Position numbers and translations under genes: made by a program | Shown here: positions 11,045 to 49,401 of the stretch, in pieces | How positions within the stretch are numbered: position 1 is the first letter of the stretch | How the letters are laid out: every line of letters begins with the position of its first letter | The notes under the pieces: model-generated | Databases searched by the model: none | What the model saw: only the letters and a program-made list of their open reading frames with translations | Told to the model about the DNA's origin: nothing | Sequence record: MT611523.1 | From: Escherichia phage DK-13 | DNA length: 64,000 nt | Strand: one strand, 5' to 3'

Positions 11045-11983
11045 ATGGCAACTGAATCATACAACCCGAAACAATTAAAAGATGCAATCCTTCGTCGTCT
11101 TGGTGCGCCAATCACGAATATCGAAGTTACGACCGAACAGGTTTATGATTGCATCCAGCGTGCATTAGAATTATATGGCGAATATCACTATAATGGTTAT
11201 AACAAAGGTTATCAGGCTTTTTATATTGGCCATGATGAAGTTTCACAGCAGAAATTCCGCGATGGTGTTTTCGATTTAAAAGGCCGTAATATTTTTGCAG
11301 TAACGCAGATTATTCGTACTAACGTCGGTTCATTAACTTCGATGGACGGGCAAGCCACATATCCGTGGTTCACAGATTTTGTTCTGGGACTTGCTGGGAT
11401 TAACGGTGGAATGGGTAGCTCATGTAACAGCTTTGGACCAAATGCTTTTGGTGCAGACCTTGGTTATTTTACACAACTTATGCAATACCGTTCAATGATG
11501 CAAGACCTGATGGTTCCGCTGCCAGATTACTGGTATAATGACGATACTGAACAACTTAAAATTATGGGCAACTTCCGTCAGGGAGATGTGATTGTAATTG
11601 AAGTTTATACCAAATCATATAACGGTGTGGATTCAATGGTAGGCAATACAGCTGGCTATGGTTTTGCTTCGGCCGATTGTGATAATCCATGGAATGCTGG
11701 TGCACAGTGGGATAACCCAGCGCGCAGAATAAGCGGCATGAGAGCCGGTGAGGACCTTGGACTTCAAGATGGTGCATACAACAATCGTTGGGTGAAAGAC
11801 TATGCCACGGCACTCGTTAAGGAAGTTAATGGCAACGTATTAGCTAAACACCAGGGAATGATGATGCCAGGTGGCGTCACAGTTGATGGTGTTCGTTTAA
11901 TCGAAGAAGCTCGTATGGAAAAAGAACGTCTTCGCGAAGAACTTGACCTGCTGGATGCACCGACTCCTATATTGGTGGGCTAA
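11045..11983 (+). CDS. gp13: Neck protein gp13
   Basis: 312 aa; late promoter and terminator hairpin upstream; synteny. Confidence 0.8.
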
Positions 11984-43061: not shown

Positions 43062-44594
43062 TTATTTTAATCCAGTCTTTGACCAGTCGCCAAATACATC
43101 TTCGAATGTGTCTGCATGGTCTTTATCAAAACGGAACCCTTTAATAATCGGCAGGAACAATGCAACCGTATTATCTTTACGAGTCTCGGAAGTCAACCAA
43201 CCATTACATTCACAGTCGGCAATCATTCCAACCAATTCACCTTTACGTGCTTTAACCATCAAGGCTTCACGGTCCATTTCATGACGCTCCTCAATCGGAA
43301 TAGTAACCCATTTTTTGGTTTTCTTATCTTTGACTTGAGTTGTGTCTTTAAAACCAGAACCACAGTTATTCGTAATCTTACCACAAGAAGAACGAAGCAC
43401 CACACCGCCAATCTTATTCGGGTCTTTATCGTGCTCGTAATATCCAATGATTTCCATTGCAATGTCAATTACTTCTTTGAACTTATACAGGTTCTTTGAG
43501 CGCTTGTTTTCCCAAATCGATGCCATGTTTTTAAGGATAATACCTTCAAGGCCTTCATCTACATATTTCTTATAGATAACCTTCGCTTCATCGAGATTGT
43601 TAACAACATGGTTTTCAATCAGAATCATGCGGTCGAAACCATGTAGCACCACGTTATCTGCAATCATCTTTTCCAGAACAGCAAAACGCACATCATATTT
43701 CAGCGGATTGAGAATCTTAACATCAGAATAGACTTCAATCAGTGGAACATAATCCCAAACCTGGAATTTCATACAAGAAGCTTCTGCTGCAGAAATAGTT
43801 CCTTTCAATGATTTGTTTGCCAGACCATTTGAAAAGGTTCTTGATTCAGCAGTTTCTTTTGCAGGAGCAATCTCATCTGAATCGTCAAAAAGGAAGCCCA
43901 AACCGTCATTCTGGGGAGCTATTTTCTGTTCGTGATATACTAACTCGCCATCAATTAAAACGCCCTCAGGATGTCTCTCACGCGCTTCACGGGTGGCTTC
44001 AATCAATTCCTTCTTAAGGAGGTCAAGCTTGAGGTATTCGTTACCAGCTCGGGATAACAATCGAACATCATCCAACTCATCGCCACGAACTTCTGCAAAA
44101 CATCGGGCGCCGTCGGCTTTCAATTGTGCAAAGGCCGGGAACTTAATGTTCTTAGCAATGCCAGCTTCATCATAAGAAGAAGCGAGCATCTGCTGTTGTT
44201 CAGGAATTAAACCTTTCCAAACCTTATTCGCAATTGATACAGACGCACCACATTCCAGGTCACGCATCATCACGCGGCGCAAGACTTCAACATCTGCTTT
44301 TTTACCATCTGCAATATAGCCAGATAATTCCTCGATTGCAGCATTACCTGTTAATTTGCGCGCGGCTAATGTGAATTCTATAAAGTCAAGCATATCATCA
44401 ATATTCAACATGCCAAAGCTTTGAGACGTTGTACCAGGTTTAGGCCATTTCTTTATATAGAACTGGATGCCTTTGGAATATGTCAAACGATACACACGTT
44501 TGAGGGTTTCATTGTCAGAATACGATTCCAGAATAGCTTGTTTCTCTTTAGTGGAATCGGTTGCAGCAATTTCATTTAAAATATCTAAAATCAT
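43062..44594 (-). CDS. gp30: ATP-dependent DNA ligase gp30
   Basis: Long near-identical runs to recalled T4 DNA ligase, including adenylation motif KADGARC. Confidence 0.95.
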   Translation of the reverse strand: MILDILNEIAATDSTKEKQAILESYSDNETLKRVYRLTYSKGIQFYIKKWPKPGTTSQSFGMLNIDDMLDFIEFTLAARKLTGNAAIEELSGYIADGKKADVEVLRRVMMRDLECGASVSIANKVWKGLIPEQQQMLASSYDEAGIAKNIKFPAFAQLKADGARCFAEVRGDELDDVRLLSRAGNEYLKLDLLKKELIEATREARERHPEGVLIDGELVYHEQKIAPQNDGLGFLFDDSDEIAPAKETAESRTFSNGLANKSLKGTISAAEASCMKFQVWDYVPLIEVYSDVKILNPLKYDVRFAVLEKMIADNVVLHGFDRMILIENHVVNNLDEAKVIYKKYVDEGLEGIILKNMASIWENKRSKNLYKFKEVIDIAMEIIGYYEHDKDPNKIGGVVLRSSCGKITNNCGSGFKDTTQVKDKKTKKWVTIPIEERHEMDREALMVKARKGELVGMIADCECNGWLTSETRKDNTVALFLPIIKGFRFDKDHADTFEDVFGDWSKTGLK

Positions 44595-44603
44595 AATCAC
44601 CTC

Positions 44604-44882
44604 TTAGTCGTTGGCTCTATTATATGCCACATCTTCCAAAAGCAAATCCAGACGCTTATGATAAGTGAACACAAATTTAGTCGCCCCATCCGGTTTCATT
44701 TTAGTCAGGAAGTGAACATAGATAAATCCTTGCTCAACACATTCCCGCCAGATTGGGTTATCCTTGGCCGGATTAATATCAAACGAGTAATTATGATTCA
44801 CATGACGAATAAACTGGTTAACATGACCGTAATCCATCGTGGTGGTTGGGCCACGGTCTGAAATAGTATGAACGACAAACAT
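44604..44882 (-). CDS. Hypothetical protein (30.1 position)
   Basis: 92 aa, TGATG overlap with upstream gene. Confidence 0.5.
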   Translation of the reverse strand: MFVVHTISDRGPTTTMDYGHVNQFIRHVNHNYSFDINPAKDNPIWRECVEQGFIYVHFLTKMKPDGATKFVFTYHKRLDLLLEDVAYNRAND

Positions 44883-45706
44883 CAATTACCCCCTTGTCCG
44901 CCGGTCGGTTGATTGTACCAATATTCAATGCCAGTACCTACACGCTGGCCATATTGATATGGATATGCTGGATTATATCCAGGAGTCCACGGTTGACCAG
45001 GCTGCCAGCCTTGTTGCATTTGTTGTTGAAGACGGCGAGTTTCACGAAACAGCTCATCCAGTTTACGGAGTTCATCTGGGGTGAATTCTGGTTTGACCGG
45101 TTCATCTTTGTGTTTCAGTTTAAGCTGTCCAGCAACATCGTCCCAGTTAAAAACTTTGGAAGCCGTCTTAGGAATAGCATCACGTTCGCCACGGGCCATC
45201 CAATAAACCGGGACTTCAAGGATTTCACTCGCATGGTCGCAATGGTGTGCAAGGTCATCAATATAACAAATGACATTATATTTGGTCTTCGCTTTCTGGA
45301 ATAACTCTTCTTTAGAGGCTGTATGGCCACACATCATCACTTCTTTAAATGCGCCAGGGAACAAAGCATTCAGGTTGAATTGACGATTCAGACGGGCATC
45401 AATGGAATCACCCAGAGCTGTAACGGCCACAAAATCATATTGCTCTTTGAGGTTATTAATAACCCTTAGCGCATCTGTGTAAGGAGACAAATAGCGAATA
45501 AAATCTGAACAGTTATATTTCTCAATCAACTGTGCTCCCAACTCTTCATCACAATTGAACAGTTTACCAGGGGTCACAAATTTTTCATCCTGAATCATCT
45601 TAAGGATATGTTCCAGGGGTAAATTATATTTTTGGGCGAAATAAGGCAAGCCAGACTGCCATGACAAACATACGCCATCAATATCTGTTAAAATAACGGG
45701 TTTCAT
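44882..45706 (-). CDS. HAD-superfamily phosphatase / 5'(3')-deoxyribonucleotidase-like protein with Gln/Pro/Tyr/Gly-rich C-terminal tail
   Basis: N-terminal ILTDIDGV (HAD motif I, DxDGV as in NT5C-type nucleotidases); C-terminal 45 aa low-complexity tail. Confidence 0.6.
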   Translation of the reverse strand: MKPVILTDIDGVCLSWQSGLPYFAQKYNLPLEHILKMIQDEKFVTPGKLFNCDEELGAQLIEKYNCSDFIRYLSPYTDALRVINNLKEQYDFVAVTALGDSIDARLNRQFNLNALFPGAFKEVMMCGHTASKEELFQKAKTKYNVICYIDDLAHHCDHASEILEVPVYWMARGERDAIPKTASKVFNWDDVAGQLKLKHKDEPVKPEFTPDELRKLDELFRETRRLQQQMQQGWQPGQPWTPGYNPAYPYQYGQRVGTGIEYWYNQPTGGQGGN

Positions 45707-46161
45707 AATGCATCTCTCAATTGGTTAAGTATGTCAATAAATTCTTGTTCAGTCAATATTGTATCATGAACAGTAAGGTGGCTCGCCATCGAATGCTTTA
45801 AAACTTTGCCCTTTGTAGCTTGTAATGCGTCGCGGAACCCTTTGTTTTGGAGCGCTGCTTCAAAATAAACATTTGTATACAACTCTTTCCATGATGCAGA
45901 GTATCTTGAAAAGGGAATTCCAAGCCAGAAAAGCGTCCCACGGTCCGCAGCTCTTGCATAAGCTCTTCCACTTTGCTGGGCGGCCAATCCGGACATCCCA
46001 AATATACGTTTTTGTTGTTCATGATTTCTCACCTTACACCCTTGTAGGAAGCCTTCAAGACCTCCAAACTGGATGCCATCCATAACAAAAGGCCATTTAG
46101 CAAAGTTACTTAATGCACATGATGGCCATGGGAAATTGCTTCTGATTTCTAACTCAGACAT
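45703..46161 (-). CDS. NADAR / YbiA-family (DUF1768) protein
   Basis: LSNFAKWPFVMDGIQFGGLEGFLQ resembles the conserved core of E. coli YbiA (FSNFAAWPIKVDG...EHYFQ). Confidence 0.65.
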   Translation of the reverse strand: MSELEIRSNFPWPSCALSNFAKWPFVMDGIQFGGLEGFLQGCKVRNHEQQKRIFGMSGLAAQQSGRAYARAADRGTLFWLGIPFSRYSASWKELYTNVYFEAALQNKGFRDALQATKGKVLKHSMASHLTVHDTILTEQEFIDILNQLRDAL

Positions 46162-46366
46162 CTTTGACACTTACTACATCAACGTTTGCCCAATGACCAT
46201 AACCAGGTAGACGGTCTTTAATAGATAATCCACCGTCAGATTTCAGCATTTTAATTGTTTTAGTATATGGTTCAATATTTCGGGCCCATGGACTCACGTC
46301 TGTTACGCGATAAGTAACTTCAACCATTTCTGTGCCCAAAATTTTCTGAATCAGTTTCTTAAACAT
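46154..46366 (-). CDS. Hypothetical protein
   Basis: 70 aa ORF in operon-like array, no recognisable motif. Confidence 0.45.
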   Translation of the reverse strand: MFKKLIQKILGTEMVEVTYRVTDVSPWARNIEPYTKTIKMLKSDGGLSIKDRLPGYGHWANVDVVSVKDV

Positions 46367-46367
46367 A

Positions 46368-46562
46368 TTATCCTCGCCTTAAACATTTGATTACAGACAG
46401 TTCACCGCTCATGCGAACGTCTTCAGTTCCGTCAACCCACAAGACTGCATATGCTTCTTTAATTTGGGTATTGTCTAATTTAAACGCAGGCAGGACCTTT
46501 GAAATCATTCCAGGAATACCCACACCTTTTAACTGAACTGTTTGTGATAAGAATAGTTGCAT
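46368..46562 (-). CDS. Hypothetical protein
   Basis: 64 aa ORF, tight spacing with neighbours. Confidence 0.45.
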   Translation of the reverse strand: MQLFLSQTVQLKGVGIPGMISKVLPAFKLDNTQIKEAYAVLWVDGTEDVRMSGELSVIKCLRRG

Positions 46563-46879
46563 TAGAACCTCATCTGAAAGCCGTGCGATTTAACATTGCC
46601 ACCATAGATGTCAGACGTATTAACTTCACGTGCAGCGCTCGGGTCGATATTGATATCATGGTTGAGCTTAGTGATTGCTAGGGTATCACGACCGTTAACA
46701 GTACGGAATTCTACCGGGCAAACTATATCCGCATAGTTTTTAATGGATTCTTTAGTTGGTTGCTTATCAGCAGGTACACCTGGACCAGCTTTAGAGAAAA
46801 CAACTTCACAGAAATTTTTACGTGTATCAAAGTAAGTAGTCATAAACATAGTATTTTCCTCAAGGGGCTTTCGCCCCAT
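46562..46879 (-). CDS. Hypothetical protein
   Basis: 105 aa ORF; early-type promoter upstream. Confidence 0.45.
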   Translation of the reverse strand: MGRKPLEENTMFMTTYFDTRKNFCEVVFSKAGPGVPADKQPTKESIKNYADIVCPVEFRTVNGRDTLAITKLNHDINIDPSAAREVNTSDIYGGNVKSHGFQMRF

Positions 46880-46934
46880 TTAAGATTAGATATCAAATTC
46901 ATTAAGAACTACATCAAAGATTGCTTCCAGGTGT

Positions 46935-46975
46935 TCAGTATGGAATCATTATGCACTGGACAACCCCTGTTGTAA
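46935..46975 (-). promoter_or_regulatory. Early-type promoter upstream of the 105-aa gene
   Basis: Minus strand reads GTTTAC-N18-CATAATGATTCCATAC, the same downstream element as at 25110-25150. Confidence 0.45.
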
Positions 46976-46991
46976 ACCCTTTATGGAAAAT

Positions 46992-47018
46992 AAAAAAGGG
47001 ACTCCGAAGAGTCCCTGA
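46992..47018 (-). terminator. Hairpin GGGACTC-CGAAG-AGTCCC downstream of the 53-aa basic protein gene
   Basis: Stem-loop with A-run. Confidence 0.55.
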
Positions 47019-47020
47019 AC

Positions 47021-47182
47021 TTATGCTTTCGGCTTACCAAAGCAAGCTGCATCGGCACGCAATACCGCACGAGCACGAGCCTGAAGTTTATCAGTTACCT
47101 GATTGATTCGCTTGTTGGACGCACGCTTGTAACCAGCGCGTTTGGAGGAGCCATCAACAACTTTAACTTCTTTCTTAGCCAT
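47021..47182 (-). CDS. Small basic protein, 53 aa
   Basis: My own translation, below ORF-track cut-off: MAKKEVKVVDGSSKRAGYKRASNKRINQVTDKLQARARAVLRADAACFGKPKA; AAGAGA RBS; hairpin terminator immediately downstream. Confidence 0.45.
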   Translation of the reverse strand: MAKKEVKVVDGSSKRAGYKRASNKRINQVTDKLQARARAVLRADAACFGKPKA

Positions 47183-47479
47183 ATTAAATTCTCTTTAAAA
47201 ATAGAATGCAGGACTTATTGACATTGCCTGCGCAAGCCCTCGAAGGGAACATTAGGTTTCGGATATTTAACGACAGGATAACCATAAACCTCGTCATCAT
47301 ACCAACCACGACTTAGACAGATAACCTTTTTCTGACGCGTGATAGTACAAAATACATTCAAGAGGTACACCATAAAACTGTCGGGGTCTTAAAACTATAA
47401 CGATTCGCAAATCATTAATCAGACAGTTCGATGGCTCCTCGATTTTCTAGCCGCACTAAGGTAGCGAATCACCTAAAAC

Positions 47480-47734
47480 TTACTTCAGGGTTACGACAAA
47501 ATGACGAACAGCTTTACGGGCAGCAGATGCCAGCGGCTTAGCAAATTTCAGTTCATCTTTTGCTTCGAGCACTGCGCGAAGGTCGGTTTGAATCGGGTTA
47601 AGATGTTTGAAATACTGCAGAATTTCCAGTGCTTCGGCTTCAACATCAATAGATGCGCCGTAGTTTTCGTGACCGTTATTCCATGCAGTGCGTTGCAGTT
47701 CAAGAGCGTGTTGTAATTGTTTGTTTAAAGACAT
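47480..47734 (-). CDS. rIII: Putative lysis-inhibition accessory protein RIII
   Basis: 84 aa from internal ATG (T4 RIII is about 82 aa); position adjacent to gene 31. Confidence 0.5.
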   Translation of the reverse strand: MSLNKQLQHALELQRTAWNNGHENYGASIDVEAEALEILQYFKHLNPIQTDLRAVLEAKDELKFAKPLASAARKAVRHFVVTLK

Positions 47735-47905
47735 TTTAGAAGCCTCAATATGAGGTGAATATTTGGTGGACACGTTCTTCTGAATTTCACTTCCTTTCGG
47801 CAAGTCTCTCAGTTGTAGTCCACCGTTTAGGATTAGCTAACCCCATACACCAGCAAAGCTCTGTATGACATCAACCAATCCATATTATTATTTATAACGC
47901 TAATT

Positions 47906-48253
47906 TTACTTATAAAGACAAGGAACAGCTTTATAATGACAGGTCACAAATTTCTGCTTAACTTCTTTAGCCTGCTTAAGTCCCAGAGCAACCAGAGGAT
48001 GTGGAACGTTTGCAATCTTGCCAACCGGAAGAGGAGTCAAATCACCTACTTCACAGAAACCTTCAGGAACATCTGGACCAACCGAAAATACTTCACACAT
48101 CTCCGGGATTTCACCCTGATGAAGTTTTCCGATAACGATACCTGATGCCGTAGTTTCTTCATCACCAGCTTGCTTTGGCTCAGAAACCAAAATAATATAT
48201 TCACCTACTGCTTTAATTGGTAATTCCATATTTAATCCATGTTGTTTGGTCAT
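47906..48253 (-). CDS. gp31: Co-chaperonin gp31 (GroES analogue)
   Basis: [23 protein letters not shown]...[17 protein letters not shown] matches recalled T4 gp31. Confidence 0.9.
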
Positions 48254-48284
48254 GTATTAATAATAACACGCACCGTTTGAAGCA

Positions 48285-48584
48285 TTAAAGGACAAGCAGT
48301 GTCTCGGTCTGCAGTCCATTCACGGAAATCAATTTATTGAAACAGAATGAACGCCATTCATTAAGCTTGGTATCAAATACCCGGATATAGCTAACTGGTT
48401 CTTTATGAGCTTCTGGTCCAGGGGCCTGGATTTCTTTATACGGTAGCAGGTCCAGGTCGCGAGTACAAGTCATACGACGAACGCTGCCATCTGCTTTTTC
48501 AAACAGAACTTCATGAAAGCCAACAGACAAGATAGTCTTGACTTTTTCACGAAGACGAATTGTTTCTTGTTCAGTTAAAATCAT
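48285..48584 (-). CDS. Hypothetical protein (31.1 position)
   Basis: 99 aa; synteny. Confidence 0.5.
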   Translation of the reverse strand: MILTEQETIRLREKVKTILSVGFHEVLFEKADGSVRRMTCTRDLDLLPYKEIQAPGPEAHKEPVSYIRVFDTKLNEWRSFCFNKLISVNGLQTETLLVL

Positions 48585-48586
48585 AA

Positions 48587-48820
48587 TTATTCCAAAACAG
48601 TTTTAATAGTGGTTGCATTACGCTCTTTTAGAGCACGCAATAGATGGTGACAATTTTCAAGAATAGGCACCGTTTTATAGTTCGTTTCGGCGCGAACCCA
48701 CTCGGATTTATAGTACGATTTCCAGCGAGAGAAAAAGTACTTTTTGTATTCTACTGAATAGGCTACTAAGCTTTCGCCTTTTGAGTTTAGCCCTGAAAAT
48801 TTAACTAGACGAAATTTCAT
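48587..48820 (-). CDS. Hypothetical protein (31.2 position)
   Basis: 77 aa; synteny. Confidence 0.5.
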   Translation of the reverse strand: MKFRLVKFSGLNSKGESLVAYSVEYKKYFFSRWKSYYKSEWVRAETNYKTVPILENCHHLLRALKERNATTIKTVLE

Positions 48821-49401
48821 TATTCACCACAAAATTCGTTAATGTTTTCCCAGTTCAATTTGTCTAGACTACGCTTAGGCACATTGAACACCTCAATTCC
48901 TGCATTCTTCAGGATATCATCCCAACCAGGAATATTCTTATCATACGTTTCACAGTAAACCAATTTCTTGATTCCTGATTGAGAAATTGCCTTTGCACAA
49001 TCAGGGCAAGGAGAAAGCGTCACATACATAGTAGCGCCTTCAATTGACGAACCCATTCTGGCTGCGAACAGAATTGCATTAAGCTCGGCATGAATTTCGT
49101 TGTTCTTTGACCAGGCCGAATGAGCTTCGCGATGAGCTTTCGCCAATACAAAACGGTCAACCTTACTGAATCTCACACATTCTGGCTTGTGACCAGGGAC
49201 GAGAACAGGTTTAGGTTTATTCAGTAACCAACCTTGCTCTTCCGCATGCTCGCAACAGTTGACCCCACCTGCAGGGGAACCATTATACCCTGTAGAAATA
49301 ATGCGGCCATTCTTTTCAATAACAGCTCCCACTTTCCAGGAGCAACATTTGGATTCTTGAGATACAAGGTATGCGATTTGCAGAACAGTAGTTGGTTTCA
49401 T
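48820..49401 (-). CDS. cd: dCMP deaminase
   Basis: 193 aa as in T4 Cd; zinc-binding deaminase motifs CEHAE / HAELNAI and PCPDCAK. Confidence 0.9.
   Translation of the reverse strand: MKPTTVLQIAYLVSQESKCCSWKVGAVIEKNGRIISTGYNGSPAGGVNCCEHAEEQGWLLNKPKPVLVPGHKPECVRFSKVDRFVLAKAHREAHSAWSKNNEIHAELNAILFAARMGSSIEGATMYVTLSPCPDCAKAISQSGIKKLVYCETYDKNIPGWDDILKNAGIEVFNVPKRSLDKLNWENINEFCGE

Follow-up and report, generated by a model that had tools for sequence, protein, structure and literature searches.

Between the genes for DNA ligase (gp30) and the co-chaperonin gp31, Escherichia phage DK-13 carries a cluster of four short open reading frames (ORFs) on the minus strand. The question raised by this locus is what these genes are, and whether they form, as an original prediction had proposed, an early array of host-takeover or anti-defence factors. 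The window analyzed is a stretch of 64,000 nucleotides (nt) from sequence record MT611523.1, and all coordinates refer to that stretch. The four ORFs lie between ligase and rIII/gp31 at the positions and on the strand that had been described, and the locus was correctly recognized as the gp30-gp31 variable region of a T-even-type phage. Judged from homology and gene order, the ORFs are the DK-13 orthologues of the T4 early genes 30.9, 30.6, 30.5 and 30.4, and the tests performed here left no room for doubt about this orthology. The reading preferred here, to which a probability of roughly 0.6 is assigned, is that the cluster consists of copies of T4 early genes, arranged in two units, which would encode small early proteins each binding a particular host component, with nucleic acid as the probable target of gp30.9. 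The genes of the cluster are:

47021..47182, minus strand: gene 30.9, 53 amino acids
46562..46849, minus strand: gene 30.6, 95 amino acids (ORF as first called 46562-46879, 105 amino acids)
46368..46562, minus strand: gene 30.5, 64 amino acids
46154..46366, minus strand: gene 30.4, 70 amino acids

The gap between 30.9 and the 105-amino-acid ORF is 141 nt. The nearest group to the DK-13 cluster is formed by phages VR7 and VR20 (Gaprivervirus, T4-type), with 92-95% nucleotide identity across the four-gene region, and the syntenic genes are named 30.9, 30.6, 30.5 and 30.4 in the annotated records of VR7, VR20 and T4. The T4 (NP_049818-NP_049820, NP_049823) and VR7/VR20 orthologues have the same order, strand and neighbors (ligase, 30.1, 30.2, 30.3/30.3', rIII, gp31) as in DK-13, which differs in lacking 30.8 and 30.7; T4, VR7 and VR20 carry both between 30.9 and 30.6. 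Identity to the T4 protein is 70% over 43 amino acids for gp30.9 (E 1e-19), 81% over 95 amino acids for gp30.6 (E 8e-59), 67% end-to-end and gapless for gp30.5 (NP_049819, E 6e-30) and 40% for gp30.4 (E 8e-19). The DK-13 gp30.9 is identical (100%) to that of VR7, and gp30.4 is identical (100%) to that of VR20. Each protein matches a PHROG family of unknown function: phrog_1427 for gp30.9 (E 3e-26), phrog_2153 for gp30.6 (E 4e-47), phrog_1690 for gp30.5 (E 1e-28) and phrog_2042 for gp30.4 (E 6e-33). PF26902 is precomputed on all 20 database homologues of gp30.6, and PF26911 is present on all 34 homologues of gp30.4. In addition to its homology, gp30.9 shows an invariant core, a place downstream of rIII and a terminator after the gene. 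The homology of gp30.6 to T4 extends over the full length; gp30.5 combines T4 homology with a place between 30.6 and 30.4, and gp30.4 combines full-length T4 homology with a stop codon overlapping the 30.3 start.

Among 50,697 phage records searched with tblastn, 30.4 was found in 721, 30.5 in 732, 30.6 in 804 and 30.9 in 972, so that each cluster gene is carried by some 700-1000 deposited phage genomes. All carriers are T4-type phages of enterobacteria and their relatives, the gene order is kept, and nearly all of the matched records label the genes as hypothetical. The description of the four as unknown genes therefore applies to the function of most of them and not to their identity, since 30.4, 30.5, 30.6 and 30.9 have long been annotated in T4. 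No new kind of gene is represented in the cluster, which is a standard, already catalogued T4 set and ordinary for a T4-like phage because it consists of catalogued T4 genes of which only 30.5 has a reported role.

Comparison of DK-13 with 13-33 related loci, at saturated synonymous divergence (median dS 0.8-1.2), gave median ratios of nonsynonymous to synonymous divergence (dN/dS) of 0.25 for 30.9, 0.09 for 30.6, 0.13 for 30.5 and 0.18 for 30.4; the comparison genes rIII and 30.3 gave 0.11 and 0.10. For 30.9 across relatives, identity is 68-97% at codon positions 1 and 2 and 41-77% at position 3. All four genes are protein-coding and under purifying selection. The expectation that they are early genes is borne out by the T4 data, in which 30.4, 30.5 and 30.6 are of the early class for both RNA and protein, and 30.9 is of the early class for RNA with no protein class assigned (PMC9697503, supplementary files 4 and 6).

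The 30.6 stop codon overlaps the 30.5 start (TAATG), 30.4 begins 1 nt past the 30.5 stop, and the end of 30.4 reaches 8 nt into 30.3, whose ATG is at 46161. Because these starts and stops overlap or abut, 30.6-30.5-30.4 head a packed run that leads via 30.3, 30.2 and 30.1 into the ligase gene. Gene 30.9 stands alone as a unit, placed after a conserved non-coding spacer and ending at an intrinsic terminator. The predicted signals between the two units are:

46997..47016, minus strand: intrinsic terminator AGGGACTC-TTCG-GAGTCCCT followed by T6, directly after the 30.9 stop (predicted)
46976..46948, minus strand: early-type sigma-70 promoter TTTACA-17-CATAAT, 10/12 consensus matches (predicted)

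The predicted promoter is the only strong sigma-70-type site facing the cluster within 45600-48000. In VR7 and VR20 the same promoter sequence precedes 30.8, and the corresponding site of T4-type loci reads GTTTAC...TAGTAT; the number of promoter-like sites in the region was not above that in shuffled sequence (4 found, 5.3 expected). The terminator scan gave the 30.9 terminator a stem of 8 bp with 5 G-C pairs. VR7 and VR20 have an identical terminator, T4-type loci conserve it, and the record of phage ATK48 annotates a terminator at the same place after 30.9. Because 30.9 is placed ahead of the promoter and ends at the terminator, the site at 46976..46948 can serve 30.6, 30.5 and 30.4 but not 30.9, which limits to these three the earlier statement that the genes are downstream of an early-type promoter. 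The 297-nt rIII-30.9 spacer, also considered as a promoter site, contains no convincing promoter by scan or by eye.

Functional information is available for the T4 orthologue of gp30.5. In the retrieved passages of a preprint (bioRxiv 10.1101/2024.12.17.629029, 2026 version), T4 30.5 was predicted and then genetically shown to activate the NLR-like defence protein bNACHT11, and T4 lacking 30.5 and two other activators largely escapes bNACHT11. According to the same passages, tagged T4 30.5 co-purifies with the host polyphosphate kinase (Ppk), the reciprocal pull-down agrees, and bNACHT11 senses gp30.5 directly. As described there, T4 30.5 is a host-protein binder and a trigger of defence, not a shown anti-defence factor. 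The DK-13 copy differs from T4 gp30.5 at a third of its residues; from the homology of the two proteins we infer that it would bind Ppk and be sensed by bNACHT11, triggering it as the T4 copy does.

Searches of Pfam, NCBIfam, PADLOC and PDB sequences with the four proteins, both singly and as family profiles, gave nothing significant (best PDB E-values 0.06-0.9), in agreement with the earlier report of no recognizable motif. Similarity in sequence or fold to a characterized inhibitor or defence component was not found in the searched libraries, which hold no anti-defence-specific profiles, and the literature on 30.4, 30.6 and 30.9 gave nothing beyond gene lists. In the remote-homology and structure checks that had been suggested, the profile searches gave nothing significant, and AlphaFold2 gave a confident model for gp30.4 (predicted local distance difference test score, pLDDT, 86), with one helix and a three-stranded sheet and no fold relatives, and a poor one for gp30.6 (pLDDT 55), too weak for a fold search.

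The product of 30.9 is a protein of 53 amino acids and 5.8 kDa with an isoelectric point of 10.8 and a net charge of +11. Its core SKRAGYKRxSNKR(I/V) is invariant across genera, the extended core G-x-S-K-R-A-G-Y-K-R-x-S-N-K-R is unchanged in 22 aligned gp30.9 sequences, and the C-terminal segment reads RARAVLR. A gp30.9 profile searched against 1.84 billion representatives retrieved 15 proteins only, nearly all of them small, basic and with a SKRAGYKR-type core; no bacterial family and no link to ribosomal proteins appeared in that search. In the T4-type genome L050 (IMGVR_UViG_2706796796_000001, 11201-11975), 30.9 is cut to approximately its 16 first codons and fused to an unrelated ORF of 214 amino acids. 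On its composition alone, gp30.9 is most likely a nucleic-acid binder.

Under the reading preferred here, gp30.9, with its high net charge and invariant SKRAGYKRxSNKR core, would bind nucleic acid, and gp30.4 and gp30.6 would, by analogy, be small single-domain binders of particular host proteins that act early, retuning host metabolism or disarming host factors. Binding of a host component is shown for T4 30.5, most likely extends by homology to the DK-13 copy, and is suggested for 30.4 and 30.6 by analogy only. Several points weigh against this reading. A function is available for one of the four genes only, only in T4 and only from a preprint, with Ppk binding seen by co-purification, and the retrieved passages mention no effect of T4 30.5 on polyphosphate. 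No partner is indicated for gp30.4, gp30.6 or gp30.9, the structure model of gp30.6 cannot be relied on, T4 30.9 is without a protein class in the T4 proteome (PMC9697503), and the promoter and the terminator are consensus matches only. As an array of host-takeover or anti-defence factors, the cluster finds backing in 30.5 alone, through the T4 orthologue reported in the preprint as a Ppk binder and defence trigger; nothing comparable was found for 30.4, 30.6 and 30.9. The cluster marks these three as conserved, uncharacterized early proteins, and they are reasonable candidates for partner finding because they lie beside 30.5 and 30.3/AdfN, which have recently been given roles at the phage-host interface.

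A dedicated anti-defence role of the cluster genes is possible, if on balance unlikely; each small protein would then counter one immune system, as AdfN does DarTG1. AdfN, the product of 30.3, is a NADAR-type DNA ADP-ribosylglycohydrolase and an orphan antitoxin that neutralizes DarTG1, and full-length AdfN gives T-even phages resistance to DarTG1 (bioRxiv 10.1101/2024.07.11.602962). The DK-13 30.3 product is a full-length NADAR-domain protein (PF08010, E 5e-64) and the AdfN orthologue. It adjoins 30.4 immediately downstream, in the same packed run and with the 30.4 stop overlapping the adfN start; this position of the cluster genes directly upstream of adfN speaks for an anti-defence role, as do their early expression, the small size and phage restriction of the proteins, and the variation of gene content in the region between relatives. 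However, AdfN is an enzyme with a Pfam domain, whereas none of the four cluster genes matches a domain or resembles AdfN in sequence, and their products show no homology to any characterized inhibitor in Pfam, NCBIfam, PADLOC or PDB. The only member with data, 30.5, triggers defence rather than blocking it according to the preprint passages, and its partner is a metabolic kinase. The strong conservation of 30.6 (81% to T4, dN/dS 0.09) would also be unusual for an arms-race gene. AdfN itself fits an anti-defence theme but is located outside the four-gene cluster.

A second alternative concerns 30.9 and the spacer ahead of it, where a covarying hairpin, HP1, is a new point of this analysis. The features of the spacer are:

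47183-47479, minus strand: rIII-30.9 spacer, 297 nt, between rIII and the 53-amino-acid ORF
47251..47304, minus strand: HP1 module, 54 nt, comprising a hairpin, a conserved loop and a conserved tail
47209-47247, minus strand: two more small hairpins (HP2, HP3), between HP1 and the 30.9 start

The spacer is annotated as non-coding in T4, VR7 and VR20. The DK-13 spacer is 91% identical to the T4-type spacer over 244 aligned nt, and the flanking genes of DK-13 and T4-type phages are 52-67% identical at codon position 3 and 77-92% at positions 1 and 2; the spacer is thus non-coding yet more conserved than the third codon positions of the flanking genes. Spacer ORFs of 52, 41 and 37 amino acids were not accepted as genes: indels in T4 and stop codons in distant relatives interrupt their reading frames, neither a start codon nor a Shine-Dalgarno sequence is consistently present, and the sole 'conserved peptide' corresponds to the HP1 module.

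The HP1 stem is GAC(G)AGG / CCTGTC, with 47295-47289 paired with 47277-47272; the conserved loop is GTTnnnGGTTATC and the conserved 3' tail CGTTAAATATCC.AAACC. Across phages the lower stem appears as GAC/GTC, GGC/GCC, GTC/GAC, GTG/CAC and GTT/AAC. Covariation was measured on 22 distinct sequences and tested against 500 shuffles. In the HP1 register 87.8% of cells were paired, compared with 29-51% in slid registers. Two pairs, with counts of UA12/AU9/GC1 and CG15/GC6/UA1, had 10 and 7 double changes, and the covariation score was reached by 0/500 shuffles. The covariance model R1 gave a single match in the 64-kb stretch (72.9 bits). Of the 39 loci searched with it, 37 gave one match each; every match was on the sense strand, and HP1 lies between rIII and 30.9 wherever both genes were mapped. 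An exact-pattern scan of 2.9 million viral contigs returned 26 matches, 23 of them in T4-type genomes; the remaining three fail the covariance model. Rfam gave no match at E up to 1 for 44000-49000 of the DK-13 stretch and eight related loci. The folding energy of the whole spacer was not better than that of shuffled sequence (z = 0.22 and -0.62), so only local structure is claimed.

HP2 (CCCTTCGAGGG) shows some covariation with weaker support, 76.7% of cells being paired. HP3, seen qualitatively, varies in sequence, and a U-rich tract follows it shortly before the 30.9 ribosome-binding site; HP3 could be the rIII terminator or an attenuator. A module with GCTAACGGTGTGCAACAGATAAGAG recurs in the rIII-30.9 spacers of otherwise divergent phages (L006, L008, L013, L014-L021, L025, L026 and L036); it looks like an inserted element and may explain part of the range in spacer length (120-416 nt). 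The 'ori type 2 repeat' annotated in phage ATK48 is only a 10-bp motif and was rejected.

A broader reading, regarded as doubtful, takes the spacer for a conserved RNA element, so far undescribed, that acts in cis in T4-type phages and has HP1 as its core; by recognizing it, a phage or host protein (possibly gp30.9) would regulate how the rIII/30.9 transcript is processed, stabilized or translated. Still more tentative and improbable is the narrower proposal that gp30.9 and the HP1 spacer form an RNA-protein pair in which gp30.9 would bind HP1 in its own leader and so regulate either its own translation or how stable the rIII-30.9 transcript is. The T4 gp32, gp43 and RegA operators and the ribosomal-protein leaders are examples of proteins controlling their own translation via leader RNA, and HP1 resembles them in that its conserved hairpin and loop belong to the leader of a gene whose product is small and very basic. 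We know of no sequence match of HP1 to the T4 gp32, gp43 or RegA operators, and HP1 differs from these systems in its distance to the 30.9 start, which varies from ~90 to ~310 nt. The compensatory changes in HP1, with its conserved loop and tail, suggest sequence-specific recognition. An RNA-protein pair would also agree with the presence of one HP1 copy per genome on the sense strand between rIII and 30.9, with spacer conservation exceeding that of third codon positions, with the strongly basic nature and invariant Arg/Lys core of gp30.9, and with the lack of a good promoter between rIII and 30.9, which would place 30.9 behind a long structured leader. Against it, the distance from HP1 to the 30.9 start, ~90 nt in E. 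coli phages, is 250-310 nt in Klebsiella-type relatives, where HP1 adjoins the rIII stop; L050 keeps HP1 intact directly after rIII (57.7 bits) despite its disrupted 30.9; the full spacer folds no better than shuffled sequence; and binding of gp30.9 to HP1 is putative only. Because HP1 sits by the rIII stop in Klebsiella-type phages and survives in L050, a specific link between HP1 and gp30.9 is put forward as a hypothesis only. The hairpin provides a modest lead, open to experimental test, on post-transcriptional regulation in a phage that has been studied very thoroughly.

That some or all of the ORFs are chance open frames, or that the 53-amino-acid ORF is part of a non-coding RNA, would fit their shortness, the size of the latter below usual gene-calling cut-offs, its T4 orthologue without a protein class and the structured RNA elements that flank it, but is already contradicted by dN/dS values of 0.09-0.25 at saturated synonymous divergence, by third codon positions of 30.9 that vary more than positions 1 and 2, by the occurrence of each gene in 721-972 phage records in the same order and by the detection of T4 30.4, 30.5 and 30.6 as early proteins.

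The second new point of this analysis is a natural deletion of 30.8 (PF06019) and most of 30.7 (PF06919), which lie between 30.9 and 30.6 in VR7, VR20 and T4. Alignment to VR7/VR20 shows a single clean gap of ~786 bp in DK-13, extending from just past the promoter -10 region to ~49 nt before the 30.7 stop codon. The remaining traces are:

46935..46938, minus strand: deletion junction with CTGA microhomology, CTGA being present at both edges
46886..46934, minus strand: 3' remnant of 30.7, its last ~16 codons and stop, now untranslated leader

The remnant of 49 nt aligns to the end of 30.7 in VR7/VR20, ...CTGAACACCTGGAAGCAATCTTTGATGTAGTTCTTAATGAATTTGATATCTAA. BLAST of the junction segment returned it in two pieces (query 1-96 and 93-151, with an overlap of 4 nt). 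The junction was spanned by none of the 212 matching records among the 50,697 deposited phages, and in the closest relatives the matching sequence is split into 2-3 segments that extend over 1.9-2.2 kb of the genome. The deletion fuses the promoter-like site that is normally ahead of 30.8 to 30.6. The T4-type (Tequatrovirus-like) metagenomic genome L028 (IMGVR_UViG_2974742932_000001, 2650-2810) also lacks 30.8 and 30.7. Since the end points of the deletion differ in L028, the two genes have been lost independently at least twice, and since they have been lost naturally in both phages, they are dispensable.

Downstream of the 30.7 remnant, the leader of 30.6 contains a further structure:

46864..46877, minus strand: tetraloop hairpin GGGGC-GAAA-GCCCC with a GNRA loop, between the 30.7 remnant and the 30.6 ribosome-binding site

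At the 30.6 leader of T4-type phages, the stem is the same and the loop is TTCG (GGGGC-TTCG-GCCCC). As no T-run follows it, the hairpin looks like an element of RNA stability or processing and not like a terminator. The ATG at 46879, from which the product had been given as 105 amino acids, sits at the 5' edge of the hairpin GGGGCGAAAGCCCC, and the ATG at 46849 has a GAGG Shine-Dalgarno sequence 8 nt upstream and is equivalent to the start of the 95-amino-acid protein in T4 and VR7. The true product of 30.6 is therefore 95 amino acids long, and the longer reading is an over-extension to a spurious ATG.

Every gene in the gp31-to-ligase stretch of DK-13 lies on the minus strand. In order of transcription, the neighbors of the cluster are:

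47906-48253, minus strand: gp31 co-chaperonin, first in transcription order
within 47480-47803, minus strand: rIII, next after gp31
45703-46161, minus strand: gene 30.3 (adfN)
45798-46022, minus strand: 30.3' ORF, 74 amino acids, embedded in 30.3
after 30.3 and ahead of DNA ligase, minus strand: 30.2, then 30.1 (DUF3045)
43062-44600, minus strand: DNA ligase (gp30), end of the run

The same arrangement of 30.3' within 30.3 is present in T4.

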